From the NCBI GenBank assembly GCA_963818475.1, contig CAWFSF010000006.1:960001-1024000 (forward strand): a DNA stretch of 64,000 bases. Direction: 5' to 3'. Both the position numbers and the translations under genes were made by a program. This document shows, in pieces, positions 107-46,270 of this stretch (the stretch's first letter is position 1; every line of letters starts with the position of its first letter). Source of the DNA: Nitrospirota bacterium (GTDB lineage: Bacteria; Nitrospirota; UBA9217). The notes beneath the pieces were generated by a model. That model searched no databases. It saw only the letters and a list, made by a program, of their open reading frames with translations, and was not told where the DNA came from.

Positions 107-858
107 TTAGTATGGCCGAACCATGATCCTGGTGTGGCATTTGAGGCAAAGGTCTCCGATGTTGGTTGATTCAACAGCCAGGAGCGCCTTTCCGTTCGAA
201 GAGTGCGGCCTATGACAGCTCAGGCATGAAAATTCTTTGTTCTGTTTCAACGGGTCGGGTCGTCCCCGTGTCGGGTGAAGGTCATTGCTTCCGTATCCTC
301 TGCGAGGACATGCTTGCCGTCGGACTTGCCGGGATGGCAGTCAGCGCAGAGCCGTTGCACCGGTTTTTCGAGCAGTGAAGCGTTGTCCGACGCGTGCGGC
401 GCGTGGCATGCGGTGCATTGTCCCATCGCAACAGGAGCATGTACGTTTTTTTTGGTAAAGGCGGCTTTGTCGTGGCAGGCATAGCAGAGGTACGGCATCT
501 CGGAGTTCAGGAGCTTTGCATTTTTGCTCGCATGAGGATTGTGGCAACCGGTGCATCGTTTGCCGATGGCTGCATGGACGACCTTTCCCTTAAAGCGCGA
601 TTGGTCATGGCACCCGTAGCACAGCTCAGGCTGCGCTGAAGAAAGCCCTTTACCGATCTTATTCATTTTCCTGTGGGGGATCACCCGTGCATCGATTGCT
701 GAGTGGCACGTGGGGCAGCCCATGTCAAGAGCAGCATGAACGCTTTTCCCCTGCGTGATATCCCCATGGCATTGCAAACAGCCGTCTTCCGCGGAAGAGA
801 GAGGCGCGGAGAAGAAGAGGGTTGCGAGAAGGAGGAATAAAAAGAATACCGTGCGCAT
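107..858 (-). CDS. Periplasmic multiheme c-type cytochrome (9 CxxCH), one frameshift near 300
   Basis: ORF 247..942 has a signal peptide from ATG858 (SD AAGGAG) and 7 CxxCH motifs, several in doubled CxxCHxxH style. A shifted frame continues ...EFSCLSCHRPH...DLCLKCHTRIMVRPY* to a stop at 107-109. Confidence 0.85.
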
Positions 859-1000
859 GTCCTGCTTCTCCTTTATGAAAAACGTGCCAGGAAAATAACT
901 ATGATCACAAGTCTCAGCATGTGCCGGAAACAATAACATCATCGCCTTAAAAATTCAAGCGCCTTCATCCAAAAAAACCAAAAATTAAACCAAAAATAAA

Positions 1001-2509: not shown

Positions 2510-3047
2510 CGGCCAAAGGGTTAAGAAATATAGCATGATCTTGGTGGTTGCCGGGTTTGCCTTGAGCGCCAGCATCTTGTCGGGCTTGTGCGATAAATCT
2601 TTTGCTCAAACTGCTGTGAAGCCGCCTGCCGGAGCTGCAGCTGCTGTGCCGGACAAGATACCCTTTCCACGGCCGGATTCGCACAAGGGGAACTGGATAG
2701 AATATCACGGCGCGTCAGCCGGTTTAGATCTCAACGCAGGGGAGTCGACGTGCCTCACCTGCCACGAGCGGAATGATTGCATCTCGTGCCATAACACGCG
2801 GCCACCGCGGGACCATACGCAGACCTGGCGCACGCTGAGCCATGGTTTCATGGCAGAAGGGAACAGGGAACGCTGTTTCACGTGCCACAGGCAGGATTTC
2901 TGCGTGCGCTGCCATAACGAGACAGCGCCTCGCTCCCACACTGCCGGGTGGCTGGGGGGAGCGAACCTGCACTGCACCGTGTGTCATTTCAACGGCACTT
3001 TGCCTGGCGACGGCTGCGGTGTATGCCATAAAAAGCCGCCGCATTGA
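2499..3047 (+). CDS. Hexaheme c-type cytochrome
   Basis: Signal peptide; CLTCH, CISCH, CFTCH, CVRCH, CTVCH, CGVCH. The start overlaps the porin 3' end. Confidence 0.88.
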   Translation: MIFSGQRVKKYSMILVVAGFALSASILSGLCDKSFAQTAVKPPAGAAAAVPDKIPFPRPDSHKGNWIEYHGASAGLDLNAGESTCLTCHERNDCISCHNTRPPRDHTQTWRTLSHGFMAEGNRERCFTCHRQDFCVRCHNETAPRSHTAGWLGGANLHCTVCHFNGTLPGDGCGVCHKKPPH

Positions 3048-3099
3048 TAATCGCGAGCTTGATGCTAACGCAGGCAGCGCGCATTTAAGGAGTGTATGC

Positions 3100-4674
3100 A
3101 TGATTAAGCCGCTATCTCGACGTCTTGTTGCTTTATTCATATGTGCGGTGACGGTTGTCGGCTGCAGTTCGAGTCCGGGGCCCGATACGATCTCCTCCGG
3201 GTCTGGCCAGAGCCAGTGCACAACCTGTCATGCTCCGGGCAGTGCGATCGACCCGCTGACGACGAACAGCACCGGGACCTTTGGCAAACATGTTGCTCAT
3301 GTAACCGGCATGGGTTTCGCCTGTGAAACGTGCCATTTCAACTATACGAATCTCAGCACCCATGCGAACGGAACGCTGGACACGACGAGCCCCGCTGTTC
3401 TCGTTGTTTATTTCGACACGTCTAACCCCACGGGGGGCTGGAACAATGCCGCGGGAACTTGCTCTTCGTTAAACTGCCATGGTACTGATGCCCTCGACTG
3501 GTACGGAACGAGTGCGGCTAATTATCAGAGCTGCACCTCGTGCCATTCCTATGCGCTCGGTGCCAGGCGCATTGTTACCGGCACAAGCGGCGATTTCCGC
3601 GCCAATCCCGCTATCGTATCCAATCATGTCACGACGACCGGAGATCCTGCTCCTGCCCAGTGCAAGGTCTGTCACGATCTGTCTGCGCATACATCCGGGA
3701 CCGTACTTCTGCTGAATTCTGACGGCGGCGCAAGTATTGTTTACAATGCGGCAGCGCCGGCAAGCCTTGAGCCGTTCTGTTTGAGCTGTCACGATACGGG
3801 TGGCGCTGCATCGACCTTTGCAGCAGGAGGGTCGTCTCTCAAGCCGTTTAACGATAATAACACCCTGGGGAGCGTGCCGAATGTTGCCGGCAACAAGATC
3901 CAATCGTATTGGGCCGGCACTAACAACCGTCACAAGACATTCGGGTTGACCTGCGCGGGGACCGGAGCAGCAATAACGGGATGCCACGGCAATAGCGGGA
4001 AGATCAATATGCATGGTTCGGTTTCAAAAGGACTTTTGACGCAGAACCTGACCTTGGGAGTGGTCTCGGCGGTTTCCACTACCGTGCCCTATGACTATGA
4101 TTACAAGCTCTGTTTTGATTGCCATGCCAATTTTCTGGCAGTCTCTCCGCAGGTGGTTCTGGGCTACAAAAAAGGCGGCAATTACGACGTCACTGGGGTG
4201 GTCCCGCTTACTTCGTACTCGACGTCTACAACGACGATCCAATCGTTGTTCCGGGACCAGTATGTCGACAGTTCGCCCGGCGTACCGTTTTACAATGACT
4301 CGATCCCTCTACTGGAACCCTATGCGTATCTGCCGCTTCATAGCTATCACCTGCTCAGTGTCGTGACCAGCACCATGTTCATACCGGATGCAAATTGGAT
4401 GACGTGGAAATACCGCGGTGACGCCTCGCAGGCAGGCAGGATAACCTGCGTGACGTGCCATAATGTCCATGGCACGAACGGCCTTTCAGCCCGGAGCACC
4501 TTTGATGAGTTCGGGATCGCGAGCGCGGTATCGGGACCGGACCAGTACAGCACCATGCCCTTGAATAATTATAACGATGCCACGGTCATGGTGTCCTATC
4601 CCATGAACTGCGCTGTTGATTGTCATTATATGGCAGGCCAGACCTTTTATTGGAACACTCCTGCTAATGAGTAA
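3100..4674 (+). CDS. Multiheme c-type cytochrome lipoprotein with a CxxxxCH/CxxCH module
   Basis: SD AAGGAG before ATG3100; lipobox VVGC; 7 CxxCH plus CSSLNCH, CAVDCH and CAGTGAAITGCH; Thr/Ser/Gly-rich. Confidence 0.85.
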   Translation: MIKPLSRRLVALFICAVTVVGCSSSPGPDTISSGSGQSQCTTCHAPGSAIDPLTTNSTGTFGKHVAHVTGMGFACETCHFNYTNLSTHANGTLDTTSPAVLVVYFDTSNPTGGWNNAAGTCSSLNCHGTDALDWYGTSAANYQSCTSCHSYALGARRIVTGTSGDFRANPAIVSNHVTTTGDPAPAQCKVCHDLSAHTSGTVLLLNSDGGASIVYNAAAPASLEPFCLSCHDTGGAASTFAAGGSSLKPFNDNNTLGSVPNVAGNKIQSYWAGTNNRHKTFGLTCAGTGAAITGCHGNSGKINMHGSVSKGLLTQNLTLGVVSAVSTTVPYDYDYKLCFDCHANFLAVSPQVVLGYKKGGNYDVTGVVPLTSYSTSTTTIQSLFRDQYVDSSPGVPFYNDSIPLLEPYAYLPLHSYHLLSVVTSTMFIPDANWMTWKYRGDASQAGRITCVTCHNVHGTNGLSARSTFDEFGIASAVSGPDQYSTMPLNNYNDATVMVSYPMNCAVDCHYMAGQTFYWNTPANE

Positions 4675-6249: not shown

Positions 6250-7642
6250 ATGAGCAAGGTTTGGTACAATTTTTTCGAATGCAATGCCGCTTCGCGAGAT
6301 ATCCTTAGAAAGGATGTCATTGAATATCTCGTGCAGTCGGGCATAGAGATGCTCGAACTTGATCATGATAATCAGTGTGGAATTGGACTTCTTTTTTTTC
6401 ATGAGTTCTCGGATCGGCTGTGTAAATTCATAGGAGATGTCAGCCGGAACGGCATCAGGAGGGTGCTCTGCGCTCGCTTATGCCCGGTCCGCGTTAGAGA
6501 GCGATAATCCCTGGAAATTGCTGCAAGCAGGCGTTTCCGATGTCATTGCTCTCGATTCCTCAGTCGATATCTCGGAAAAGATAAGCACGCGCCTTGAACG
6601 CTGGATCGCAGTAGAGCATCTGATCGATAGCCCCGCGGTCTGCGAATCCCTTATCGGACAAAGCCCGGCATGGCGGTCGGTATTGCGGCAAGTTGTTGAA
6701 GTCGCGCACTTTACCGATTCAGCGGTATTGATCACCGGGGAAACCGGAACCGGCAAGGAGCTTGCTGCGCGTCTGATCCACACCGTCGATCCCAGGAAGG
6801 ACAAGGGCGACCTCGTCATTCTTGACTGTACGACCATTGTCCCGGAATTGTCCGGCAGCGAGTTCTTCGGCCACGAACGCGGCGCCTTCACGGGCGCCGT
6901 CGCATCGCGCGACGGCGCCTTTGCGATGGCAAATAACGGGACATTGTTCCTTGATGAGGTGGGAGAGTTACCTCTTAAGCTGCAGGCGCAGTTGCTTCGG
7001 GTAGTGCAGGAAAAGACATTCAAGCGCGTTGGAGGGAATGCCTGGCATTCCACGAACTTCAGGCTCGTTTGTGCAACAAACAAGGACTTGACGAAGGAGG
7101 TTCAACGCGGTGAGTTCCGCAGCGACCTGTATTACCGAATCGCCAACTGGACCTGCACGCTGCCGCCGCTGCGGGACCGGAGCGAGGATATCCTTCCTCT
7201 GGCCCGTCATTTTATAAGCGAACTGACCACTGGGAAAGATATGCCCGAACTGGACAAACTCGTTCGTGAATGCCTGCTCGTGCGAACGTATCCCGGCAAT
7301 GTGAGGGACCTGAAACAGCTTATTTCCAGGATCATGTGCAGATATACGGGAAAGGGGATGATCACCGTGGGAGACATCCCCGAGGAAGAACGGCCGCATG
7401 GAGCGATCAGCTCTGCTACCTGGTGCGACGGCCAAATGGAAAATACCATCCGCCAGGCATTGCTCCAGAATGTAGGGCTGAGAGAGATCCGCGGCGTCGT
7501 GGAAAAAACCGCCATTGATATGGCCATCAATGAGGCTGACGGCAATCTGCAGCGCGCGGCCAAAAAACTGGGCGTGACCGATCGTGCGTTGCAGCTGAGG
7601 CGTGCAGCGGATCGCTCCCGACTGGAAACGGGGACAAACTGA
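6250..7642 (+). CDS. sigma54-dependent transcriptional activator (bEBP) with atypical N-terminal domain; frameshift near 6465
   Basis: ORFs 6250..6507 and 6437..7642; Walker A GETGTGKE, GAFTGA, LFLDEVGE, FRSDLYYR, YPGNVRDL, C-terminal Fis-type HTH. Confidence 0.92.
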
Positions 7643-7692
7643 TGCTGCGCGACACATCAGGCGGAGTGGCGAAAGCCGTTGCGGACCTGTTG

Positions 7693-8463
7693 TTATCGTT
7701 GGATACGCGCCGGATGTCTTGGGTGAGAACCTGCGATCAGACGCATGATATTGCCGCCGAGGACATTGTCTTCATCCGATCTCGACAATTTCAGTGCATA
7801 TATCTTCTCCATTTCAACTTCGGGATGGAGCCAGGGGCCGTCGGTTCCGAACAATATCTTATGTGGCCCGGCCTGATAAACTGCTGCTTTAAGCTGATCA
7901 AAGAACCTTACGCCTGACGTATCGGTAATAATATTCGGATATCTTGACAAAAGTTCAATGAACATTCTCTGCACTCTTGAATCGTCATTAAATGTCCCGA
8001 GATGGGGGATGATGAAGGTCACGTCCGGATACTCGGAGGCCAAAGTTGGAATGATGGCTACTTCTCCCATGATGTCATACAGCACGGGTAGCGACAGCGC
8101 CCGGGCAGTCTCGCAGACTTCTCTTGTTATGACGGCGTCACGGCGGTGAACCTTGATGCCGCAAAATCCGTATTCTACGACAGTTTCCTTTACCATCCGG
8201 TGTATTCTTCCCCTGTCGCGAAACGCATGAACGAATGCAAAGCCGTAGAATCGGACAGGATCCCGCGCAATAATGCCCGCGACCTTCCTGTTCGCGGTCT
8301 GATAGTCCGAATGGAAAGGCGAGAAGAGGATGGTTCGGGCGATGCCGGCTTCTGATGCGCGCTGCAGATACCGCTCAAGCGGCAAATTTAATTGTCCTGG
8401 ATCTGTAAAATCCGCTCCAGTGCCGGCATGGCAGTGGGAATCAATGATTAGTGTCGGTTCCAT
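7693..8463 (-). CDS. Amidohydrolase_2 family metallohydrolase
   Basis: IIDSHCH, GIKVH, IIPHLG, ILFGTDGPW, VLGGNIMRL. Confidence 0.9.
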   Translation of the reverse strand: MEPTLIIDSHCHAGTGADFTDPGQLNLPLERYLQRASEAGIARTILFSPFHSDYQTANRKVAGIIARDPVRFYGFAFVHAFRDRGRIHRMVKETVVEYGFCGIKVHRRDAVITREVCETARALSLPVLYDIMGEVAIIPTLASEYPDVTFIIPHLGTFNDDSRVQRMFIELLSRYPNIITDTSGVRFFDQLKAAVYQAGPHKILFGTDGPWLHPEVEMEKIYALKLSRSDEDNVLGGNIMRLIAGSHPRHPARIQR

Positions 8464-8469
8464 AGAAAA

Positions 8470-8815
8470 CGGGCGCTATCCTTCTGCGGTCGTCCCTGAA
8501 TGGAGGTCCCGCTTCGGTCCTGATACCTCTCTTCCAATTGAGAGCGCCGCGCAGGGAACATGATCGCAGGCCGGTCGGGAGCAGGAATGGCGGTGTCGCT
8601 AATAACGGCGACATCCGCCGCGAGCATCTCTGCGTTATCGTTCAGAAAAGAGCGCAAATTGGGGCTGCCGATCGCTTCCTCACCCTCAAAAATACATCTG
8701 ATGTTGACCGGGAGCCGACCGGATCGTCCGGAGATACGACTCGATCGCCTTTACGTGGCAGAACAATTGTCCCTTGTCGTCTGATGAACCACGTCTGTAA
8801 AGGTAATTATCATGA
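8470..8815 (-). pseudogene. Internal fragment of an M20 family dipeptidase
   Basis: Manual translation gives YLYRRGSSDDKGQLFCHVKAIE, then a frameshift, then LPVNIRCIFEGEEAIGSPNL..ADVAVISDT. Only ~110 codons, with no N- or C-terminus. Confidence 0.75.
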
Positions 8816-8819
8816 TACT

Positions 8820-10592
8820 TCATGCGAGTATCTGCTTTGCGTGTGAGTACGAATTCCCGATCCTGCTTCCGTATTTTTCATACTGACCGAAGCCGTTGTA
8901 GTACTTGGCAAATTCCGGCCACTTATGCTCACGGAGATGTTTGATGAGATATCCTTTCTTCGGTGCTTTCTTTTGCTTGCAGAAGTCAAAGAAGCCGAGA
9001 ACATGAGCCCGTTCACTGGCCTGGAAGGCATCATACATCGCGCGCGGAGATGAGTATCCGATCAACCGATAGTTGGCAACCAATATCTGCGGGCCGCCGA
9101 TGCTTATACATCGTAAGGCAATATCTTCACCGGCAAGCCTTGACGCGAGGGATAGGACCCTATATTCGAGTGCTTGATTACCGTGAAATGCCTTGAACGC
9201 TTCGGTTACGTTTTCCCTGAACTGGTGATTATGCCAGCTCTTGCCTGACATCCCATTATGCCCCCAGTGCCGGAAATACTGATTGTAGGTATTCTGATTG
9301 GATTTCCCCCACAACTTATAGAATAAGTGGTTTTCAAATCTGATGATTGCCTTGCCAGTTGTATGGCTTCGGCCTCCGCTTTCGATCTGCCAAACCGCGA
9401 GAGCGGTCTCAGCTTCGATCCTAAGCTCGCTTGCCGCTGCCCGCATTAATCCCCCAAGGCGATTGTATGTTCTTGCCAGGCTTTTGCGGACTGAGGTCCA
9501 TTTCGGATTGATGGTTACCGAAGTACCGGGCTTTAAAGGCGAGGCCTTTAATCGAGAAGAATCTTTATAAAAAGAAGCTTGTTGGTTGCTCTGTTCTGAA
9601 TCCAGCTCTAAAAGCCCTGTATCTTCGAATTGCGAACCAGTCGCTTGATCTGCAAGCTCTTCCCAGGTTTCAGGTTCTTTGAAATCTTTATGGTCGGAGA
9701 ATTCCATGCCGGTGTATCCGGGGGTGATGCTGCTTTCCTGATCCTCAAAATATTCAAATGACTCGAAATCTTCAGACGACTCAGGGTAAGTCTCAAATTC
9801 CTTTGCAGTCGCCCTTGCCCGATTCCGCCAGGAATCCGGGATCGGGTTCCCGAGTCCTATCTTATATCCGAGTCCGCCGTCTTTCAGGCGTAGATTAGTA
9901 ACAGCCCAGTGGCCTACGTGATACCAGATGTCCGGCCCGGGACAATTCTCACGGGTACTGGCTGCCTGACGGTGAGCGAAGATGTGCGTCAGCCCGATCT
10001 TCTTTATAAGGTGTTTGACAAGGAAACGACCCGCCTCGATCTGCGCCTGTGACAGCTTGTGGCAGCCGTACTTGCCTGCCTCCCAGCATTTTCCCCTTAC
10101 ATTGGGAAAGTTTCCGGCAAATTCGACAGCCACGCTTTTTCGATTAAATCCATTCGATGCCCAGAGAAGGGCGGATACGGGATGCAGTTGGAGTATTCTG
10201 CCATTTGGCAGAATGGCATAATGCGCCGTAACTTGGTTATATCGATCAGGGTTGTTGCCCCGGCTGAATGCCATCTGATGCAACACCAAAGCCTTCACCG
10301 TGCTTGGATCACGGCGGCCTTTGCGCCTGTCTTTACGAGCGACATTCGTGCGGTCCTCTATCCGAAGCCCGCTCGTCCCGACGACTTCCTGCTCCGTATC
10401 CGGCAATTCAAGAACATCCAATTCGAAATTGTCTTCAAAGTCTTCCTGGTTCATTTTGGTGTCAGGCATTTCACTGTCTTCTGATTCGAATAAATCCTCA
10501 AAGTCTTTCTGATCATCATCGGCAAGCTCGAGCGTGTCTTCGGATTCTTCGTATTCAAAAGGCTCTTCTTCTATCTTCGGTCTATAACTCAT
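8820..10592 (-). CDS. Acidic-leader protein with N-acetylmuramoyl-L-alanine amidase (Amidase_2) and N-acetylmuramidase (DUF3380-like) domains
   Basis: Amidase motifs LVLHQ, AHYAI, VEFAG, FAHRQ, NCPG. Muramidase motifs QIESGG, IRFENHLF, SIGGPQIL..NY..GY, FAKYYNG. Two Glu/Asp-rich segments and no signal peptide. Confidence 0.85.
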   Translation of the reverse strand: MSYRPKIEEEPFEYEESEDTLELADDDQKDFEDLFESEDSEMPDTKMNQEDFEDNFELDVLELPDTEQEVVGTSGLRIEDRTNVARKDRRKGRRDPSTVKALVLHQMAFSRGNNPDRYNQVTAHYAILPNGRILQLHPVSALLWASNGFNRKSVAVEFAGNFPNVRGKCWEAGKYGCHKLSQAQIEAGRFLVKHLIKKIGLTHIFAHRQAASTRENCPGPDIWYHVGHWAVTNLRLKDGGLGYKIGLGNPIPDSWRNRARATAKEFETYPESSEDFESFEYFEDQESSITPGYTGMEFSDHKDFKEPETWEELADQATGSQFEDTGLLELDSEQSNQQASFYKDSSRLKASPLKPGTSVTINPKWTSVRKSLARTYNRLGGLMRAAASELRIEAETALAVWQIESGGRSHTTGKAIIRFENHLFYKLWGKSNQNTYNQYFRHWGHNGMSGKSWHNHQFRENVTEAFKAFHGNQALEYRVLSLASRLAGEDIALRCISIGGPQILVANYRLIGYSSPRAMYDAFQASERAHVLGFFDFCKQKKAPKKGYLIKHLREHKWPEFAKYYNGFGQYEKYGSRIGNSYSHAKQILA

Positions 10593-10599
10593 AAGCGGC

Positions 10600-10856
10600 C
10601 TCCCTGTTCATTGCGTACGAGAAAGTGCACATAGAGCGATATCTTGCTGCGGCCATTGCTCCGCAGCTTGTCCATCTAAACGGAATCCCATGATTTCCCG
10701 CCGGAACTACCTGATCGGTCTCGACAAGCTAGATGTCGGTATTTGGATCATCGATCCTGATGGAGGCCGCGCCTCCGCGTTCACCTGACTCACTTCCAGA
10801 ACAGCAGATGCAGAACTAAGCTTGCCCTCATTTGACGTGATAGAAATAGTAGCCAT
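10600..10856 (-). pseudogene. Degraded small gene remnant
   Basis: SD AGGAG and ATG10856 (MATISITSNEGK...). Coding-like text continues across frameshifts and stops (IRIDDPNTDI*LVETDQVVPAG). Confidence 0.3.
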
Positions 10857-10931
10857 CGTATTTCTCCTGTAAGTTGGTGTGGTTCGAAAAAATTCACTCC
10901 AACGCTATTTTTCTTACTCGCAAAGAGGTCT

Positions 10932-11921
10932 TCAATTAATTATTCGTTCGTAAAGCCCCGCAACTTGTTTCCCATTGCTACATTTCAGCCAAAGCCTTCT
11001 GACGAAGTGGATTTTCTGCCTTGTCCCCAGGTGAGTGACCGGGCTCGATCCCGCGGCTGGAAGCTTCCCCCCTAAGTGCACAGGATTCGAATCATTCAGT
11101 TTCACTACAAATTCGTAAGCTGGAAATAGATCCACATATCCAAGAAAACCAATATCAACGTAGTTGCGCGCTACTCGCTTGATAAAGAAGGTGCCCTCGT
11201 AATCGATTTTGGCGTTCAATAGAAACTGCCCGACTTTCTTAATAGTCTTTGATGTTGGACATGCCGGCCCTTGCGATCCTTTGACACGAATCATTATCTC
11301 CTTCGCCGGTGTGACGCCCAAAAACGAGAAATTCATCGGTGACGTAGACGAGGTTCCTCTACACAAAACGAGGCCAGTCATGCAATCAACTTGAATGGTA
11401 GGGTCAATGCGATGATTTTGATAGATGATGCGAGGCTTATCCAGGTCCATCTTTGTCTCAGAATGCATTCTTGATGACGCATTAATATCCGGGCTCAATG
11501 ATCGTTGATCGGTAAGACCGCAAAAAAATTGTGTGACGAACATAGTCTTTCCCGCCATGCTAGGGTCCAGCTTTACGATAGAGTCAGGAACCTTCCTGGT
11601 CAGGCCTGAAACATCTCTCGGAATGAATGCATTCAACCAAACTGTGACGGTGCGAATACGATTTTCGCATGTCGGCAGCGCATCAGTCACTTCATCGAGT
11701 GCAGACTCATATTCCCAATCTGAGGTTTCGGTGCCACGAAATAGCGACTCGTCTTGCAGTTGATCATCCGATTCAGAATCAAACGACCAGCTTTCCTCTT
11801 CGCCGTATTCTGGGAAGATGTCCTGTGTCTCCTCCGAGAATTCGTCGAACGACTCAAGCGTATCTTCGAACTCGAAGTTGGTCTCCAAGGGTTCGATGTC
11901 AAATTTATATACGTTTTTCAC
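10932..11921 (-). CDS. Acidic-leader protein with an unknown C-terminal domain (DUF3238-like, tentative)
   Basis: GGAGG 5 nt before GTG11921; leader YKFDIEPLETNFEFED; domain with WLNAFIP, TDQRS, SSRMHS, DLFPAYE. Confidence 0.75.
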   Translation of the reverse strand: MKNVYKFDIEPLETNFEFEDTLESFDEFSEETQDIFPEYGEEESWSFDSESDDQLQDESLFRGTETSDWEYESALDEVTDALPTCENRIRTVTVWLNAFIPRDVSGLTRKVPDSIVKLDPSMAGKTMFVTQFFCGLTDQRSLSPDINASSRMHSETKMDLDKPRIIYQNHRIDPTIQVDCMTGLVLCRGTSSTSPMNFSFLGVTPAKEIMIRVKGSQGPACPTSKTIKKVGQFLLNAKIDYEGTFFIKRVARNYVDIGFLGYVDLFPAYEFVVKLNDSNPVHLGGKLPAAGSSPVTHLGTRQKIHFVRRLWLKCSNGKQVAGLYERIIN

Positions 11922-12066
11922 ACCCACCTCCAAAATTTCGCTCAACTCATTCTTTTAGATGCCGCAGCGGTTTTCGTGCGTTACGGCCTTGCCGCCTGAT
12001 TCACCCTGCGAAAGTGAGGCGCGCACCACTCCTCGGGTTACGCCCGACCCCCTCTGTTCGAATAGT

Positions 12067-13605
12067 TCAGCGGGCCTTCTTCCCGACAGCCATCTCAAGC
12101 GCCCGAATCCCTTCAGCGCGGAGGTGGTCGACAAACGATCGAAAAGCATGACGTGTACCGTGGATTTGGATGGGACCTTCGGTGACCGGGTCTTTAACAT
12201 CGCGCAATCGAGCGAAGAGCCCATCGGCAATCCCCTGCTTAACCGTGACATCGACCTCCTGGTACGCGATCTCGCCCAACTGGCCCCACCGCCACTCGAG
12301 TGGTGATGCGCCACCTCCCCCGGGCAAGGGAACATTTGCGCCTGCTGAGCGATCTTCCTTGGGCACGAACCCCCTGGCAGCAAAAACAGGTGTTCCAAGA
12401 GCTTGCTTGACAGCATCAGTCCGCTGCGAAAGTGAGAGAGAACGACCTGCCAGCTTGCGGCCGACGCCCCGAACTCGCTCGAGGTCGCGAAGCGACGTGA
12501 TGACAGCGGCAGTCGCCATCATCTTGGTAGTGGATCCCGCGGCGCTTGTTCCGAGATGAGAGTCACCGACCGCGGTCCATCGGTAGCCGCCCTGAATTCT
12601 CTTCCCATCGTGATCCATGTCCGAGACGACGCGAAGGCCTCGGTTGTCTAGATTGTGCAACGCCAGGCTTACGATGTCGCCCAAGGAGAAAGTCCTTACC
12701 GCCTCCCCGCCGAGTTTTGAAGCGCGCTCCTTGATCTTCGCCTTGGTGAGCCACGACAACCACCATGCTAATGGAGGGAGCCGCTGACGCTCGTCCAGAC
12801 GGTCGTACATAAACTTGGCCATGTAACGGAGGAAGCGATCGGTCGAGTCGGGTATATGGCGCTCGTACCACTCTCGAATTGACGCGCGAGGCGTGCGTAC
12901 GTGGCCGGCAGCGAACATGTCTGTGAGGAAGTGATGGCCGAAAGCCTCCTTTGTCAGCGCTCTTCGCCACGCGCTCTGGCTAGCCTGCTCGCCGGCTTGA
13001 AGCGAATCGGCGATAGCTTTCGAATGCCATAAGACGTAGGCCTCCCAGGCACTGCCGCCAGCGGAGAAATGGGACAGGTTGCGGCTGGCGAGGACGTAGT
13101 ACCGCTCACGAACAGCGTCTTTGACCTTGTCTGGCACCTGCGGCTCCGGTACCTTTGGCTTGTGTCTCTTCAGATCGAGTGCCTGCCATCGGACCCAGGC
13201 GATCATGGCTCTCCCGGTTGGTGTGCGGGTGAGGTCCTGCATCTCGTCGTAGGTCCCGAAGTAGTCCCCCGCAAGGGCCACCACCTCTCCGAAGCTCAAG
13301 CGCTGGCCGCGTTCGCCGTAGACAATCGTTGTTGGTTCTCGACCCGAGGCCAAGTCACCAATGTCGCGATGCTCCGATCCGATGAAGTGTTGAACAGCAT
13401 CCGCTGGCTCTAGTGAGAGCTGAGAGGCCCCGTTCTCGAATCCCTCGTTGAGGCCCAGATCGAATAGCTCGTCAAGGAACTGCGCTTGGCCGGCCTCTTC
13501 CTCCCATTCCCAGTCGGCCAGCTCGGTATCAAACGTTTCGGACTCTTCATCGAATTCCGAATTAGTCTCAAACGGCTCAGACTCGATATTAAGCTCGTAC
13601 CTCAT
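12067..13605 (-). CDS. Acidic-leader zinc metallophospholipase C (Legionella PlcA/B/C and Pseudomonas fluorescens PLC-like)
   Basis: FIGSEH, LSFGEVVALAGDYF, NLSHF, FGHHFLTDMFAAGH (family signature pattern), HNLDN, W..VGD. Confidence 0.75.
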   Translation of the reverse strand: MRYELNIESEPFETNSEFDEESETFDTELADWEWEEEAGQAQFLDELFDLGLNEGFENGASQLSLEPADAVQHFIGSEHRDIGDLASGREPTTIVYGERGQRLSFGEVVALAGDYFGTYDEMQDLTRTPTGRAMIAWVRWQALDLKRHKPKVPEPQVPDKVKDAVRERYYVLASRNLSHFSAGGSAWEAYVLWHSKAIADSLQAGEQASQSAWRRALTKEAFGHHFLTDMFAAGHVRTPRASIREWYERHIPDSTDRFLRYMAKFMYDRLDERQRLPPLAWWLSWLTKAKIKERASKLGGEAVRTFSLGDIVSLALHNLDNRGLRVVSDMDHDGKRIQGGYRWTAVGDSHLGTSAAGSTTKMMATAAVITSLRDLERVRGVGRKLAGRSLSLSQRTDAVKQALGTPVFAARGFVPKEDRSAGANVPLPGGGGASPLEWRWGQLGEIAYQEVDVTVKQGIADGLFARLRDVKDPVTEGPIQIHGTRHAFRSFVDHLRAEGIRALEMAVGKKAR

Positions 13606-14701
13606 GACTTACCTCCAGGATTTTTGCCTTCGCGCTCCTGTTTCGTGCGATGCGCGCGAGCGCGTCCACCGCAAGGTCGATATCGCCTTGCCTGAGGAGT
13701 GCCGTAATGAGAAAACTGATGCGTGGGCGATGGCCATTGCGCCCGCGATGCAGTACCGTCCGAATCCCACATTGCAGCAGGCGGTCGTAAAGCGTTTCCG
13801 CGTCAAGCCCGGATGCAGGCACGAATGTCTGGACCGGGAACAAACCGCCGCTGGTTAAGAAACCGGCATGTGCCATGCGACTGCGGAAACGACGCACCAG
13901 ATGGGCGAGACGCAATCGCAGCTGGTCGCCATACTTCAGGTTTGCAACAAGAGCATGCTCAGCGGCATGGACAACTGCAAGGGAAGGCGGGCTGCAATGA
14001 ACCCTCGTTTCGCTCTTCTCTTCGAACCAGCCCACCATCCTGCTGCTTCCTGATAGGGCGGCTGCAGGAACGCCGAATCCCTTGGCCATCGAACTCGCCA
14101 TCAGCACATGAGGGTTCTGTGCGTTATTGCTCCACTGGAGTATGCCGCCGCCACCCATGCCATAGGGGGTTTTTTTTTCCGGCGAATGCCCCAATATCCC
14201 GAGTGATTGTGTGTCGTCCAGGATCAGCAGCCCGCCCGCGTCCCGGGCAAACGCCGCATATTCTGAAACAGGCGCGGGCTTTCCGCAGGCCGGACAAAAG
14301 CCGTCGGACAGGATCACCGGCCGCCTGCGGTGATTCGAATCATTTTTCATTACTGCCTTAAGGGCATCAGGGCGATAGTGAGCAAAAGTCCTGACGGGAA
14401 CACCGCGCGATGCGGCGCGTTCCACTCCCCACCGGGCGATCGGGTAAACACCCGCGTCCATGTAAATGGCGCTGTCATACTTGTCGAGAATGCCGAAAAG
14501 GTCCCAGAACAAATGCAGGGTGGAGGGAGCAAGTACTGCCCGCTCGCAACCCTGCAGCTCCGCCAATTTCCGGGCAATCGCGCGTGCTTCCCGGGGCTCT
14601 TGCAATGCCGCAGGGGCGCCAAACGTCAGCGTCTCCCACGGACGAAGGCTGCGGCTCGGGTGATGCATGCCGAGATAGAGCGCAGAACTGAAATCCATCA
14701 T
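13589..14701 (-). CDS. PLP-dependent class I/II aminotransferase fold (AONS/BioF-like)
   Basis: DFSSALYLG, LILDDTQSLG, SMAKGFG (PLP lysine); overlaps the next gene. Confidence 0.85.
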   Translation of the reverse strand: MMDFSSALYLGMHHPSRSLRPWETLTFGAPAALQEPREARAIARKLAELQGCERAVLAPSTLHLFWDLFGILDKYDSAIYMDAGVYPIARWGVERAASRGVPVRTFAHYRPDALKAVMKNDSNHRRRPVILSDGFCPACGKPAPVSEYAAFARDAGGLLILDDTQSLGILGHSPEKKTPYGMGGGGILQWSNNAQNPHVLMASSMAKGFGVPAAALSGSSRMVGWFEEKSETRVHCSPPSLAVVHAAEHALVANLKYGDQLRLRLAHLVRRFRSRMAHAGFLTSGGLFPVQTFVPASGLDAETLYDRLLQCGIRTVLHRGRNGHRPRISFLITALLRQGDIDLAVDALARIARNRSAKAKILEVSHEVRA

Positions 14702-14711
14702 GACGTGCTGC

Positions 14712-16193
14712 CTATCTGCGCTGCAACTGCATCTCCAAACGCCTGCTCAAATGGACCGACGGTTTAGTTGCATCCACCTTGCCGTTCACGACGGGATTAG
14801 CCAGGTCAACGCCAGTGGCGATCCGATAGGCGTGCGCATAGCTCTGGATCTCGCTTCTCCAGTACAGTGCCCAGTTCCTCGCTTCCTCGGCGTCGTTTAC
14901 GTTGTTCCAGTCGCCGTAACGGATGGACAGGAGTATCTGCTCGCCGAATACGCCCAGGTCGCTGAAATGCATGGCGGAGACATCCGTCCATCCCTGAATG
15001 GTCTTTAACGCGTCAACTGCGGACATCCAGCCTTCACGGTAGGGCATCATCGGTCTGCGGCCGAGGAACTCATGCATCTCAGGCCTCGACAGCAGCCATT
15101 GCTGCATCAGCATCTCCACGCGGGCCTGGAAAGGCAGGTCCCCAAACTGATTGTGTGCGCCCTCCGCAAGGAGCATATGCACTTCCTTAAGCGCGTTCAG
15201 GAGCGGGAACGGGTCCGGGACCATCAGCTTGTTGTTTTCTTCCTTGAAGAAGATCATGCATCTGTTTAGGAGGTTGTGAAACGCTTCGATGAACTTCGAG
15301 CGGCTGTCGGCGGTTTGCAATACCGGAACCGCCTTGCCTATGAGCGTAAGCCCGTACTCATGATCGTACTCATAGGCGCGGCGCTGCATGGACAGGCGGT
15401 TGTGCTCGTCTTGAATGTAACCCCAGAGCAGGTTGCTGAGAGGACGAAGCGGACTGAGCGTGAGGTTTGCCAGAGGGTCCCTGGACGACATCTTCTTGTT
15501 CTGGAACCGCAGGCTGATCGCATTGATCGCCTGGGCAAGCATTCCCTCTTCGTGCCAGTATGACCAGATCAACTCGATCATACACGGGTTATTCACCCGG
15601 TTATCGATGACAAGATTACTGTCGTCGCAAAAGATGCTTTTAAGGCCTGTCTGCAGATTTAAGTTGTTCAGAATTCTTTTGAGATAGGGAAGTTGAGGAT
15701 TGCCATCAAAGTATTGATCCACCAGGTTCTTCAGCTTGTCCATCAGGTCTGCTGGAGTATCTATCTCCCACCCGAGCCGCTTCTTTTCGTTCTCAAAATC
15801 GCCGTCAAGTCGCACGGTATCCAGTGCATTTGGCTGCTCTCTCGTGATGTCGATTCTTACGGAGGAGCACGCATACAGCATCAGGAAAAGCTCTGTTGCG
15901 GCCTTAAGTGAATCGTAAGAATGTACTCCTTTAAAGCACCTGTCCGTGTCACTTTTTTTATCAAGCCCTGCCTCGGTGATTTTTTTACTGATGTTCGCAT
16001 CGACATTCTCTTGTTTAAACTCCTGACATGCGGCTGACTCAGGAGCGGGCCTCTCAGGACATATGGCGCATTTTAAAAAATCTTGATAGTTACTAAAACT
16101 GATGGTTTTTGTCCGGAGTCTTATTGCAGTGTTCAGTGCTTGCCCGGGTGTTTCGTATCTTTTAGATTCAAGGCTAAAAATGTTGTCAGTCAT
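14712..16193 (-). CDS. Hypothetical protein (putative system core component)
   Basis: 493-aa ORF with SD AAGGAGG; helical, Trp-rich C-terminal half (IELIWSYWHEEGML, RRAYEYDHEYG); operonic spacing. Confidence 0.85.
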   Translation of the reverse strand: MTDNIFSLESKRYETPGQALNTAIRLRTKTISFSNYQDFLKCAICPERPAPESAACQEFKQENVDANISKKITEAGLDKKSDTDRCFKGVHSYDSLKAATELFLMLYACSSVRIDITREQPNALDTVRLDGDFENEKKRLGWEIDTPADLMDKLKNLVDQYFDGNPQLPYLKRILNNLNLQTGLKSIFCDDSNLVIDNRVNNPCMIELIWSYWHEEGMLAQAINAISLRFQNKKMSSRDPLANLTLSPLRPLSNLLWGYIQDEHNRLSMQRRAYEYDHEYGLTLIGKAVPVLQTADSRSKFIEAFHNLLNRCMIFFKEENNKLMVPDPFPLLNALKEVHMLLAEGAHNQFGDLPFQARVEMLMQQWLLSRPEMHEFLGRRPMMPYREGWMSAVDALKTIQGWTDVSAMHFSDLGVFGEQILLSIRYGDWNNVNDAEEARNWALYWRSEIQSYAHAYRIATGVDLANPVVNGKVDATKPSVHLSRRLEMQLQRR

Positions 16194-16208
16194 GACATCC
16201 TCCTTTTG

Positions 16209-17531
16209 CTATATTCCCGTTGAGTGTAGTTCTCTTAACGGCCGTTCACTCGACCGCTTCGAGCAGTTCGCTGAAGTATCGAGCGCGTTTTTCAGCGCCC
16301 ATTGTTTGAGCAACTCTGCCAGTATGCCGCTTTCCTTTTCCGGCGTTATCCTTCCATCACCCCGTGCCTGCCCGATTGCCGCGAAAACCAGGGACGGCTT
16401 CTCTGTCAGCATTTGTTCTGGTGAAGATCGCCATGACTCATAGAGTTCCTGCAACTGCTGAGGCCGGTGTTTACCGCACCTGAGTACTTCCATTACCGAG
16501 CTGCCGCGTAAAGACTTCGGCCTGTGGTTCACGAGCAATGTCACAAAACCCGGCATGGTGGAAAGCAGGCTCGAGATCGCCCGCCTCTTTTCCTCGGGAA
16601 GACCCGCAGCCGGATACAGGGTTTCCCATAGTTGAGATAGCCTTGCCCACTGCGGGTGAGGGTAAAGCGCATTCCCGATTGCGCAGCTAAGTTTCACGCG
16701 TATCCACGGAAACGGGTGCGGGTCATCGAGTGTGAACCTGAAAACAAAGGCGCGGGGGAGGCTGACCACGCTTATGAGTCCGAGCGTGGAAGCAATGCCT
16801 ATTTTCGCAATTGCCCAGAAGTCTGCAAGGATCTCGGAAATCCAGCGATCCCAGAGGCTCCAGGCGATGGCTTGATCGCCGCCGCTCTTCTGCAGACCCT
16901 GAAGTACCTCCCGTACGGACTTTACCAGGTCGAGCAGCGCTGAGCCCTGATGTCCTACCTCGTGTATCAGTGAAGAGGCGATCCCGCTGCCGACCATCCG
17001 CTCGCGGGGGACACGGATGACGGCAACAGGGTTTTGAGCGCCGCCCGGCAACCTCGTTCGTGCCCGCCGGATCGCCGCGCCGTGGCCCCGGTCAAGATAG
17101 CATACGACCGGAGGAGGCTCATAATAATGGCCTTCGATCCGGAGCGCGTCGGCTGAAACAACATCGAGGCCGGAAAGCCAGATCCCTGTTTCCTGTTCGC
17201 TCCGCTGATTCAGCACATCCGCAAAGATGTCGAATTGAGATAAGACATTATTGAATCTCATCCGCAGAATCGTGAATCTTCGCTGCGCTTCCGTCGCAGA
17301 AATACGCTCAACCCCGCCTTGTTCGAGCCAATGGTAGTAGCTGTGGATCATCTCCCGTAGCTGCGCATTTCCGGTCGCAATAGACTTTTCAATTGCATAG
17401 AGCGCGTTCGGTGAAATAGCCGCTGCCGGGACCATGGGCATGGTGAGAGAAAATGACCTCACCCTGTCCAGCCGCGCCAACAGCGCACGTGCTTCCTGCA
17501 AGAGGAAGGAATGAGCTACGCTGCCGTTCAT
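16209..17531 (-). CDS. HExxH gluzincin-like metallopeptidase or hypothetical protein
   Basis: LIHEVGHQ, downstream WISEILAD, DPHP; ATGA overlap with the upstream gene. Confidence 0.75.
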   Translation of the reverse strand: MNGSVAHSFLLQEARALLARLDRVRSFSLTMPMVPAAAISPNALYAIEKSIATGNAQLREMIHSYYHWLEQGGVERISATEAQRRFTILRMRFNNVLSQFDIFADVLNQRSEQETGIWLSGLDVVSADALRIEGHYYEPPPVVCYLDRGHGAAIRRARTRLPGGAQNPVAVIRVPRERMVGSGIASSLIHEVGHQGSALLDLVKSVREVLQGLQKSGGDQAIAWSLWDRWISEILADFWAIAKIGIASTLGLISVVSLPRAFVFRFTLDDPHPFPWIRVKLSCAIGNALYPHPQWARLSQLWETLYPAAGLPEEKRRAISSLLSTMPGFVTLLVNHRPKSLRGSSVMEVLRCGKHRPQQLQELYESWRSSPEQMLTEKPSLVFAAIGQARGDGRITPEKESGILAELLKQWALKNALDTSANCSKRSSERPLRELHSTGI

Positions 17532-18217
17532 GCATAGATACCATAGAGAATTATTTTATTGCCGCGGCGAAGCCATCGGCCGCTGCTCCGGGGGCGGCGC
17601 CCGCCTGCGCCCGAAGAACCATAGGGACGCTGCATTTTGCTGATCAGGCCTGGCGCGTGCCGCTTTGCGGCCTCAATTACCGCCGTTTTTGCAGCATTGA
17701 CCGGGGGCACCGAAGGCGACGCAGCGGCTGCGTTCTGGGCTGCAGAGCCGGCAAGGCGGACAACCCTGCGGGCAACTTCGAATTCTTGATCTTCCTGGCT
17801 CAGTCCCTCGAGTTCGAGGCCGAACATGCTCCCTGCCGACGATGCGAGCTTACTACCGATTGCAGTGCCGATGCCTGGCGCAACCATTGATCCGAGAGCG
17901 CCTCCGGCAATCGGAAGCGCTTTTTTGATAACGCCCTTGAGCATGCCTCCCAGGGGAGAAGCGACTCTTTTTATACCTCTTCCAATTTTCCTGAATACCC
18001 CTCCCAGAAACTGGTCGAGTTCCGCTTCGTCTGAAATTTCAAGAAGCTGAGAGGCCAGCTCCATCTCTTCGCCTTCACTGAATGGACTCTCCTGGTCGCC
18101 GACTTCGCCGGAGTCGAATTCAAAATCTTCGCCTTGCAACCCTTCTTCTGGATCAAACTCACCTTCGAAGCTTTCTTCAGGTTCAAATTCCGCCTGTGTA
18201 CGATCTAAATCGTGCAT
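17528..18217 (-). CDS. Acidic-leader glycine-zipper protein with a basic C-terminal GRWLRRGNKIILYG motif
   Basis: SD AAGGAGGAG before ATG18217; acidic N-terminus, amphipathic FLGGVFRKIGRGIKRV, AGGALG..PGIGTAIG glycine zipper. Confidence 0.85.
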   Translation of the reverse strand: MHDLDRTQAEFEPEESFEGEFDPEEGLQGEDFEFDSGEVGDQESPFSEGEEMELASQLLEISDEAELDQFLGGVFRKIGRGIKRVASPLGGMLKGVIKKALPIAGGALGSMVAPGIGTAIGSKLASSAGSMFGLELEGLSQEDQEFEVARRVVRLAGSAAQNAAAASPSVPPVNAAKTAVIEAAKRHAPGLISKMQRPYGSSGAGGRRPRSSGRWLRRGNKIILYGIYA

Positions 18218-18268
18218 GATTTTCTCCTCCTTGTATAAGTATGTGTAGTAGACGCTATGGAGGGAATT

Positions 18269-18285
18269 AGCAAGATACATGCCGG
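18269..18285 (-). promoter_or_regulatory. sigma54 (-24/-12) promoter of the island operon
   Basis: Minus-strand CCGGCATGTATCTTGCT gives GG-N10-GC with TTGC, about 50 nt upstream of ATG18217. Confidence 0.75.
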
Positions 18286-46163: not shown

Positions 46164-46270
46164 GAATCTCTTTGGAGGAGAAAGAGGGAAGTGGGCGAAA
46201 AGGGGTAACCGCATTTTAATAAGAGTTAATCCCCATTTCACCATCCTTCTCCATTTCTCCTGAAAGGTTC
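46164..46270. repeat. Inverted array of purine-rich ~9-mers
   Basis: GGAGAAAGAGGGAAGTGGGCGAAAAGGGG versus CCCCATTTCACCATCCTTCTCCATTTCTCC. Confidence 0.6.

Follow-up and report, generated by a model that had tools for sequence, protein, structure and literature searches.

A sigma-54-associated gene cluster with a conserved core and acidic-leader cargo: a candidate machinery for the release of envelope-attacking proteins

We analyzed a 64,000-nt stretch of DNA from a Nitrospirota bacterium (UBA9217), called the window below, whose numbering gives all coordinates unless a related locus is named. The operon region (6437-18283) holds a run of tightly packed open reading frames (ORFs) on the minus strand, from 18217 down to 7693, with the gene of a bacterial enhancer-binding protein (bEBP) converging at its end. 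The first three genes encode a glycine-zipper (gz) protein, a protein with an HExxH motif, and a 493-aa protein, and they form the core of a gene cluster that recurs in distant bacteria around a changing set of cargo genes, many of which start with an acidic leader. We tentatively propose that the cluster releases envelope-attacking proteins from the cytoplasm. Its features, from the head of the operon to its end, are as follows:

18269-18283, minus strand: sigma-54 (-24/-12) promoter-like element, GGCATG-N4-TTGCT, 52 nt before the gz229 ATG
17528-18217, minus strand: gz229, putative glycine-zipper pro-protein, as read from its translation
16209-17531, minus strand: hexxh440, HExxH protein; 4-nt overlap with gz229
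14712-16193, minus strand: unk493, 493-aa core protein, all-alpha by prediction
13589-14701, minus strand: plp370, pyridoxal-phosphate (PLP) enzyme; accessory core gene
12067-13605, minus strand: c512, cargo; 17-nt overlap with plp370
10932-11945, minus strand: c337, cargo with an acidic leader; body without an assigned function
8820-10592, minus strand: c590, cargo; Amidase_2 and N-acetylmuramidase
8491-8811, minus strand: M20 peptidase remnant, from tblastn with the intact M20 protein of the related locus L015
7693-8463, minus strand: amh256, Amidohydro_2 metal-dependent hydrolase; last gene of the operon
6437-7642, plus strand: bEBP, Sigma54_activat and HTH_8; convergent with the operon

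The gene order, the strand, and the overlapping or tight junctions are all as the original prediction had described them. Pfam and NCBIfam recognize only the bEBP, amh256, c590, and plp370, the last by a weak BioF-like class I/II aminotransferase signal. The other five proteins, gz229, hexxh440, unk493, c512, and c337, have no family match in either collection at E<=0.01. When the Pfam threshold is relaxed to E<=10, c512 and c337 each obtain one chance-level match (E 0.087 and 0.11, respectively), and gz229, hexxh440, and unk493 still obtain none. PADLOC returned no defense-system model for any core or cargo protein.

Scanning one genome per species with unk493 gave 404 relatives, of which the best 80 loci were taken. 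Our locus counts come from these, and the denominators 48, 68, and 69 comprise only those loci long enough to tell. The carriers fall into at least nine phyla and include Alpha-, Beta-, and Gammaproteobacteria, Acidobacteriota, Myxococcota, Desulfobacterota, Nitrospirota, Planctomycetota, Chloroflexota, Verrucomicrobiota, and Methylomirabilota; among the proteobacterial carriers are Bradyrhizobium, Methylobacterium, Nitrosomonas, Nitrosospira, Cupriavidus, and methanotrophs. By tblastn with the window proteins, hexxh440 was found in 78 of the 80 loci, gz229 in 71, the bEBP in 61, amh256 in 53, and plp370 in 46. The window's cargo was found far less often, with the N-terminal part of c590 in four loci and c512 and c337 in none. 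The arrangement is conserved as well: the hexxh440 gene adjoins unk493 directly upstream in 66/68 loci, at least one gz copy is present in 67/68, and a convergent cluster bEBP in 46/48. Co-occurrence of the core genes across phyla, and the constant core with variable acidic-leader cargo that gene-neighborhood comparison had been expected to reveal, were thus both found.

The organism's own genome contains one copy of the cluster. A search of 40 genomes from its genus, family, or phylum did not find the unk493 gene in any of them. The gene likewise drew no match among 50,697 phage records, and four megaplasmids carry it. A gene that is patchy among relatives, absent from phage records, and carried by megaplasmids is distributed as a horizontally mobile accessory island would be. 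The locus has no phage context either, as the cluster proteins include no phage structural families, the flanks are housekeeping, and no tRNA was found in window positions 1-30000.

Between unk493 or the PLP gene on one side and the amidohydrolase or bEBP gene on the other lies the cargo bay, which ranges from 14 to 8127 bp in the 62 bounded loci. From 114 bay ORFs of at least 100 aa we removed short or Arg-rich ones that were probably spurious, leaving 88, and added the three cargo genes of the window to give 91 for a Pfam scan. Pfam domains in this set are led by PG_binding_1 (39/91), PG_binding_3 (16/91), and OmpA (15/91), followed by Peptidase_M20 (9/91), Trypsin_2 (8/91), VanY, Peptidase_M74, and Amidase_2 (5/91 each), Peptidase_M23 (4/91), and an Rv2525c-like glycosidase (3/91). 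Single cases include GH25, CHAP, and glucosaminidase domains, among others. Judged by these predicted domains, bay cargo is overwhelmingly peptidoglycan-binding or peptidoglycan-cutting. Three loci (L044, L046, and L068) are cargo-less, with a variable region of only 14-42 bp, and consist of gz, HExxH, 493-aa, PLP, amidohydrolase, and bEBP genes. The gz and core genes must therefore have a function of their own.

Many bay ORFs begin with a short hydrophobic-acidic motif centered on E-P-F-E or a near variant, which is followed by an acidic aromatic stretch and often by an E-W-E...R-R-G junction into an Arg/Pro-rich basic tract. We compared the 80 bay ORFs of at least 200 aa, among which leaderless M20 genes and some spurious ORFs remain, with 301 flanking ORFs. 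The best 25-aa N-terminal window had a charge of -5 or lower in 34/80 bay ORFs vs 16/301 flanking ORFs, and cargo neighbors in other genomes therefore do bear acidic leaders. A stricter leader rule retained 22/80 and 5/301, and two of those five are cargo in a locus that lacks a downstream boundary. In the window, the net charge of the N-terminal 40 aa is -15 for c512, -15 for c590, and -11 for c337. Among 2683 non-overlapping ORFs of at least 200 aa in the organism's own genome (4.66 Mb), only nine reach a 40-aa charge of -9 or lower, and the three cargo proteins rank first, second, and fourth. Thus, the acidic-leader pattern is real and not a product of chance. A hidden Markov model trained on 34 leaders lacked the power to detect cargo at other sites in this genome, and c512 itself was its top match (E 2.8).

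Kyte-Doolittle hydropathy stays below 1.6 in every 19-residue window of the core and cargo proteins, apart from a helix of hexxh440 (residues 238-256). By this hydropathy measure no Sec-type signal is apparent on the cargo, in line with the absence originally claimed. Non-coding gaps of unusual length precede two of the cargo genes (10593-10931, 339 nt; 11946-12066, 121 nt), and the G+C content of the cargo region is 0.475-0.487 vs 0.54-0.56 for the genome. The long gaps and low G+C are consistent with recently acquired cargo cassettes.

After a 69-aa acidic leader, c512 has a toxin-like body with 114 homologues, in 27 of which PF13699 (DUF4157, "eCIS_core") stands N-terminal to the body; PG_binding_1 occurs in 5/114. 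Residues 70-507 of c512 are 40% identical (E 1e-90) to residues 217-656 of the homologue P0189, whose PF13699 domain lies at 83-159. The alignment places the acidic leader in the position that the DUF4157 peptidase domain occupies elsewhere. The same body is therefore found behind an acidic leader, DUF4157, or PG_binding_1, and cargo content differs between loci. DUF4157 is described as an HExxH PVC-metallopeptidase proposed to release the variable toxins of contractile injection systems (PMC3482391), and as the strongest marker of toxins of extracellular contractile injection systems (eCIS; PMC8213781).

The leader's modular placement would also suit a dedicated, non-lytic export route that the producer survives, with gz as a gated channel, unk493, which in most relatives has a beta-sandwich extension, as a leader-reading adaptor or chaperone, and the HExxH protein as leader peptidase. 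The diversity of the cargo resembles an effector repertoire, the extremely conserved unk493 almost always adjoins the protease gene, and holin-dependent non-lytic secretion provides a precedent, as far as the consulted part of PMC9527704 describes it. However, the conserved cluster contains no ATPase, integral membrane protein, or outer-membrane component, and three loci lack cargo altogether. We consider this explanation fairly unlikely.

The original prediction had called c512 a phospholipase C. We could not confirm the label, which has no family-model match and no PDB sequence match behind it and serves as a lead only. A short H-x3-D-x5-H stretch in c512 resembles the HxxxDxxxH signature of Het-C, and Het-C is a toxin domain, predicted kin of phospholipase C and S1-P1 nuclease, that appears among the PVC-metallopeptidase-linked toxins in PMC3482391. 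The assignment of c590 is firmer, with Amidase_2 at 97-220 (E 1.2e-15) and N-acetylmuramidase at 395-584 (E 1.5e-28) in Pfam, and matches to endolysin and amidase families in PHROGs. The body of c337 has 23 homologues covering about 73% of the query, some of them fused to OmpA, and a PDB sequence search with c337 returned no match.

The sharing of a body with eCIS toxins does not extend to the machine. The contractile tube family PF06841 has no match in the organism's own genome, which is 91% complete, or in two of four other carrier genomes, and where carrier genomes have it, the gene lies megabases from the cluster. PF13699 has no match among the cluster proteins, in the own genome, or in the genome that carries locus L025; only distant homologues of the c512 body have it. 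The type VI secretion (T6SS) sheath protein VipB/TssC (PF05943) is likewise absent from the own genome and from the L025 genome (G041), a complete-genome record. The claimed absence of T6SS, eCIS, and phage thus holds across the organism's whole genome at its 91% completeness, with PF06841, PF13699, and PF05943 all at zero. The cluster is independent of contractile machines and of T6SS.

Regulation of the cluster is the next conserved element. The sigma-54 pattern GGCAYRN4TTGCW has a single match in the 64 kb, at 18269-18283 on the minus strand, which alone is weak evidence because 29/100 shuffles of the window give at least one match. In 29/67 related loci, the pattern occurs in the 350 nt upstream of the first gz gene, where 0.012 is expected per 360 nt; this background derives from 45 same-strand matches in 1.307 Mb of loci, and most of those 45 themselves sit upstream of gz genes. 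The -24/-12 promoter claimed for the operon head is therefore present at the right spacing and recurrent. In a Nitrosomonas locus (L041:16152-16929), a second gz gene inside the cargo bay has its own strict sigma-54 motif 73 nt upstream, which suggests that long bays have internal sigma-54 promoters.

The convergent bEBP at the tail is also as claimed, with PF00158 (Sigma54_activat) at E 6.9e-59, HTH_8, and a GAFTGA loop visible in the translation. Cluster bEBPs at other loci are 49-67% identical to the window bEBP, vs at most 41% for full-length paralogues elsewhere in the organism's own genome, and the regulator is thus a dedicated, co-inherited part of the cluster. Its N-terminus ahead of the AAA+ domain is short, at about 70 aa, and the PADLOC model that fits it best is of the RtcR/PspF type; together these suggest control in trans by a partner protein. 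In this respect it resembles Psp-type regulation, in which the bEBP (e.g. PspF) lacks a sensory domain. The genes regulated here, however, are unrelated to psp, and a Pfam scan found no PspA homologue in the cluster. An inverted-repeat scan upstream of the promoter for a bEBP site gave one 10-nt pair and was uninformative.

Sigma-54 promoters have very low basal activity, which suits lethal genes. Such control fits a self-directed program in which the producer's own wall is the target, either as programmed lysis or as wall remodeling (altruistic death, release of extracellular DNA, or a developmental transition). No immunity genes were recognized in the cluster, where the small ORFs next to cargo were not analyzed for that role; the cargo is mostly muralytic with peptidoglycan-binding domains, and cargo-less loci exist, all of which would be expected of self-lysis. 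Against it, bay turnover and module swapping are typical of conflict systems, including the body shared with DUF4157 proteins, the trypsin-like proteins, and other non-muralytic modules, and the patchy occurrence of the cluster is that of an accessory weapon or defense island. We judge a purely self-directed function unlikely. In two loci, small HEAT-repeat ORFs that lack a signal peptide follow cargo genes (L016:16327-16752 and L029:14063-14545), and these are possible cytoplasmic inhibitors or immunity proteins.

The gz family shows a strongly patterned architecture. Two alignments of gz copies were made, one of 109 sequences and one of 41 for the charge pattern. In the latter, median net charges run from -14 in the acidic leader region to -7 in an acidic helix ending in a conserved F-L-G, +9 in a cationic, amphipathic glycine-zipper segment with 23% Gly, -5 in an acidic linker, and +5 in a basic tail that ends in GRWxRRGxxIxL. 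The copy adjoining the protease gene has a near-invariant N-terminus, and tandem copies number zero, one, two, or three in 1, 26, 38, and 3 of 68 loci, respectively. In 1.3 Mb of loci the tail motif was matched 99 times, and 92 of these matches fall at the C-terminus of plus-strand ORFs, which we took as gz genes. The motif, found in the window at 17528-17600, is highly specific, with only two matches in the organism's own 4.66-Mb genome. No Pfam, NCBIfam, or holin-family match (Pfam, PHROGs) was obtained for gz, which bears a weak likeness (E 4e-4) to the Gly-rich region of phage tape-measure proteins. Two cargo ORFs carry the tail motif near their N-terminus in place of an acidic leader (L049:14833-15852 and L052:12563-13666), where it may be a second docking tag. 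A 44-aa ORF near window position 46186 has a GRW-like motif that we judged to be chance; the genes around it are, as we take them from their translations, proA-like and nadD-like.

The HExxH protein is highly conserved, with 50-64% identity across phyla and H190, E191, H194, Q195, E233, and D237 invariant in 27 sequences. Its motif reads HExxHQ, vs HExxHxxQ in PF13699. The AlphaFold2 model (pLDDT 83.7) shows a helical bundle and a small sheet followed by the HExxH helix. Its only peptidase-like structural match is to BepA/M48 and is weak (VIA Z 8.4 over 164 residues, root-mean-square deviation 5.0; Foldseek TM 0.22), and in the ESM Atlas it falls into unnamed clusters, where the nearest Pfam-bearing ones, M48 or U49 at 0.77, serve just as a lead. 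We infer from the sequence and the model that hexxh440 is a zincin-type (gluzincin) peptidase of a new family, and its activity and substrates are suggested on the same footing. The family is large: of 1.84 billion representative clusters, a hexxh440 profile matched 1136 at E<=0.001, and 807 and 354 at the stricter cut-offs of 1e-10 and 1e-30. A predicted complex of hexxh440 with gz scored 0.01; this prediction had no control and counts neither for nor against an interaction. Two loci are rearranged around this gene. In L022:7772-12098 the HExxH gene has an in-frame stop and lies downstream of the 493-aa gene, and in L031:1920-5526 it is on the opposite strand.

In an alignment of 28 sequences, the third core protein, unk493, is invariant at 75 columns, and His, Glu, Arg, Trp, or Tyr occupies many of these. 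Its AlphaFold2 model is all helical and of moderate quality (pLDDT 62.9), with no convincing fold match (Foldseek E>=0.25; VIA best Z 5.7), and we do not claim a new fold; neither the ESM Atlas nor a profile search of PDB sequences gave a usable match. Its relatives number at least 4794 proteins at E<=1e-10. Among 120 listed, most are nameless and any name given by the source is "hypothetical protein." Most relatives are 550-740 aa long and have an N-terminal beta-rich extension, in some cases recognized as CarboxypepD_reg-like, and none of seven extended relatives examined has a signal peptide. Extensions of this kind could make unk493, with an Ig-like or CarboxypepD_reg-like domain, a scaffold or shell that packages leader-tagged cargo into particles freed by lysis, and the acidic-basic alternation in gz and cargo could make them co-assemble. 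We find such packaging highly improbable, as the window unk493 has no extension and no similarity to a capsid, encapsulin, or bacterial microcompartment fold was seen.

The accessory genes are enzymatic in appearance. The plp370 protein matches Aminotran_1_2 in Pfam (E 1.2e-9) and the NCBIfam BioF model at 55 bits vs a cut-off of 426. At least 95% of 42 sequences keep its PLP lysine K207 and the motif D162-D163-x-Q165, and Gln165 stands at what we take to be the position of the DDxH histidine of alpha-oxoamine synthases. It is probably a divergent PLP enzyme of the alpha-oxoamine-synthase (BioF/Kbl) class, scoring far below the family cut-off. It adjoins unk493 in 43/69 loci. The amh256 protein matches Amidohydro_2 (E 5.6e-18), retains H10, H12, H154, and D208 of an HxH...H...D metal site in at least 95% of 52 sequences, and is present in 39/48 loci that have at least 9 kb downstream. 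The M20 fragment of the original description is real: tblastn with the full 482-aa L015 protein matches window 8491-8811 (minus strand) over residues 113-219 only, which points to gene decay within an otherwise intact operon. An intact or partial M20 peptidase gene lies ahead of the amidohydrolase gene in 12/80 loci.

The retained catalytic residues of these enzymes, together with the enzyme-like invariant His, Glu, Arg, Trp, and Tyr of unk493, bring to mind a modified bacteriocin akin to RiPPs, peptides made on the ribosome and modified after translation. The gz proteins, with their one to three tandem paralogues and leader-core layout, would be the precursors; unk493, the PLP enzyme, the amidohydrolase, and the M20 peptidase would tailor them, the HExxH protein would cut the leader, and the lysins would be accessory. 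This reading would give work to enzymes that have no role in a lysis model. Against it, gz at about 230 aa exceeds the usual size of a RiPP, and an exporter is missing from the cluster. Many loci also do without the PLP enzyme, the amidohydrolase, or the M20 peptidase, and an amidohydrolase match occurs in only 3/79 loci of the sister system described below. We regard it as decidedly improbable.

A second form of the cluster came to light through c512. Its only close relative among the species genomes is in an Actinomycetota metagenome-assembled genome (L082), beside a 30%-identical HExxH protein (E 8e-25) and a regulator like the Streptomyces antibiotic regulatory proteins (SARPs). A search with the L082 HExxH protein gave 180 relatives, from which 79 loci were taken (L083-L161). 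These "type II" carriers are mostly Actinomycetota, including Amycolatopsis, Nocardia, Arthrobacter, and Streptomyces, with a few Nitrospira, Verrucomicrobiota, Polyangiaceae, and Bacteroidota. The gene order is an approximately 800-aa acidic/basic protein, the HExxH protein, a gap, and a 447-aa protein, the three proteins being present in 78, 79, and 74 of 79 loci, respectively. An example is as follows:

L093:5031-13718: type II cluster; the gap is short or holds a small beta-rich ORF, and large ORFs with acidic N-termini follow the 447-aa gene

A SARP-like gene is nearby in 38/79 loci, often replacing the sigma-54 activator. In 32/66 loci, the ORF after the 447-aa gene has an N-terminus that is acidic and often contains an E-S-P-F motif. 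Profile comparison of the approximately 800-aa protein with gz gave a local match of 41 columns (hhalign 90.6%, E 1.3e-6) that takes in the junction helix and the beginning of the basic segment, and BLASTP of gz against an 818-aa type II protein was not significant. Homology between unk493 and the syntenic 447-aa protein was undetected by hhalign (0.08% from the single sequence, 0.44% profile-profile). Since type II keeps the order with another regulator, the three-gene logic survives a change of regulator and of cell-envelope type.

Outside the operon, multiheme c-type cytochrome genes with Paired_CXXCH and MtrC/MtrF-like domains (window 247-942, minus strand; 2842-4674, plus strand) flank the cluster, as does prmA. 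On the other flank are a GGDEF cyclase and a PhnD-like binding protein, and neither is conserved with the cluster.

The explanation we favor, to which we give somewhat less than even chances, is that this is a widespread, horizontally mobile system in which leader-tagged, envelope-attacking proteins are made in the cytoplasm and released, after sigma-54 activation, by a gz protein that a protease unmasks. The envelope-attacking proteins would be kept off until the dedicated sigma-54 activator fires. The HExxH protease would then cut away the acidic pro-regions, exposing the cationic glycine-zipper segment of gz and the Arg/Pro-rich segments of many cargo proteins. Unmasked gz would permeabilize the inner membrane from inside, in a holin-like manner, so that signal-less muralytic cargo could get to the wall. 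The producer would leak or lyse, and the freed cargo, with its peptidoglycan-binding domains and polycationic tracts, would act on neighbors in the way of a lysis-released bacteriocin. Unk493, the PLP enzyme, the M20 peptidase, and the amidohydrolase could serve as chaperone or adaptor, in modification, or in leader disposal. The original prediction had envisaged a leader-dependent packaging, processing, or export system for antagonism, predation, or programmed lysis; its core, leaders, and cargo stand, and packaging, processing, export, and lysis are all candidate functions.

Several observations weigh against this mechanism. The peptidase at its center belongs to no Pfam peptidase family at E<=10 and drew no match in a PDB profile search (E<=1 or E<=10), its structural likeness to M48 is slight, and its role as leader or pro-region peptidase is a proposal. 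The sequencing runs listed comprised four DNA runs of a single study, with small shares, and no RNA run. Membrane activity of gz is suggested by composition alone: a classical hydrophobic transmembrane helix is absent, and the maximum 19-residue Kyte-Doolittle score of 1.32 is below the 1.6 threshold. Many bay ORFs, such as the M23 and several trypsin-like ones, have no clear acidic leader. The lack of recognized immunity genes fits self-lysis as well as it fits antagonism. Finally, a lysis model leaves the PLP enzyme, the M20 peptidase, the amidohydrolase, and the strong conservation of unk493 unexplained, which suggests chemistry or assembly that the model does not capture.

The cluster has points of contact with several known systems. 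Holin-endolysin cassettes and their domesticated forms ("type 10" secretion and release of bacteriocins by lysis) share with it signal-less muralytic enzymes, a seemingly membrane-active small protein, tight control, and, in the proposed outcome, passage of cargo through a lesion in the inner membrane. However, gz is not recognizable as a holin by sequence and lacks a classical transmembrane helix, and phage context is absent. The cluster also has components that such cassettes do not: a protease and a large all-alpha protein, together with acidic leaders on many cargo proteins, a multi-gene variable bay, and a sigma-54 switch. The DUF4157 toxins of eCIS/PVC also tie an HExxH peptidase to variable toxin modules, and the c512 body is common to both, but here the peptidase is a separate 440-aa protein without PF13699, the cargo has an acidic leader, and sheath, tube, and baseplate genes are absent. 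Polymorphic toxins have a constant N-terminal trafficking element, swappable C-terminal modules, and cargo turnover between loci; they differ in that the acidic aromatic leader is not among the known trafficking domains listed in the consulted portion of the source, and in that peptidoglycan-directed cargo dominates here. The logic is thus like that of a holin-endolysin cassette crossed with a polymorphic-toxin locus, and the cluster belongs to neither class.

No characterized pathway matches the cluster, as none of its three core families gave a match in Pfam, NCBIfam, PADLOC, or the PDB, and it has no core component in common with any named secretion or injection system tested. A description of it was not found in the full-text literature; subscription-only papers and supplements were outside this scope, so a prior description is possible. 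We consider the cluster new at the level of its components and leader code, although what it produces, release through lysis, may prove to be convergent with a strategy already known. In its broadest form our proposal, for which we would put the chances a little short of even, is a new release or delivery machinery of two types, one sigma-54-controlled in at least nine mostly Gram-negative phyla and one SARP-associated and mainly in Actinomycetota, with an acidic EPF/SPF leader code that labels a quickly evolving set of wall-degrading enzymes and toxins, and a three-protein core that processes and releases them independently of Sec, Tat, T6SS, and contractile injection systems.

If this is true, hundreds of environmental and plant-associated bacteria, e.g. 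Bradyrhizobium, Methylobacterium, Nitrosomonas, Cupriavidus, myxobacteria, and acidobacteria, would hold an unnamed weapon or lysis system, and the sister type would extend it to Amycolatopsis, Nocardia, Arthrobacter, and Streptomyces. Several of the carriers can be grown in culture, and one activator gene should turn the system on. The leader would provide a simple sequence tag for the discovery of lytic enzymes and toxins, and gz would add a family of protease-gated, membrane-permeabilizing proteins. The system would account for how many signal-less peptidoglycan hydrolases and toxin modules exit the cytoplasm, and it would connect toxin modules known from contractile injection systems with another route that needs no such machine.

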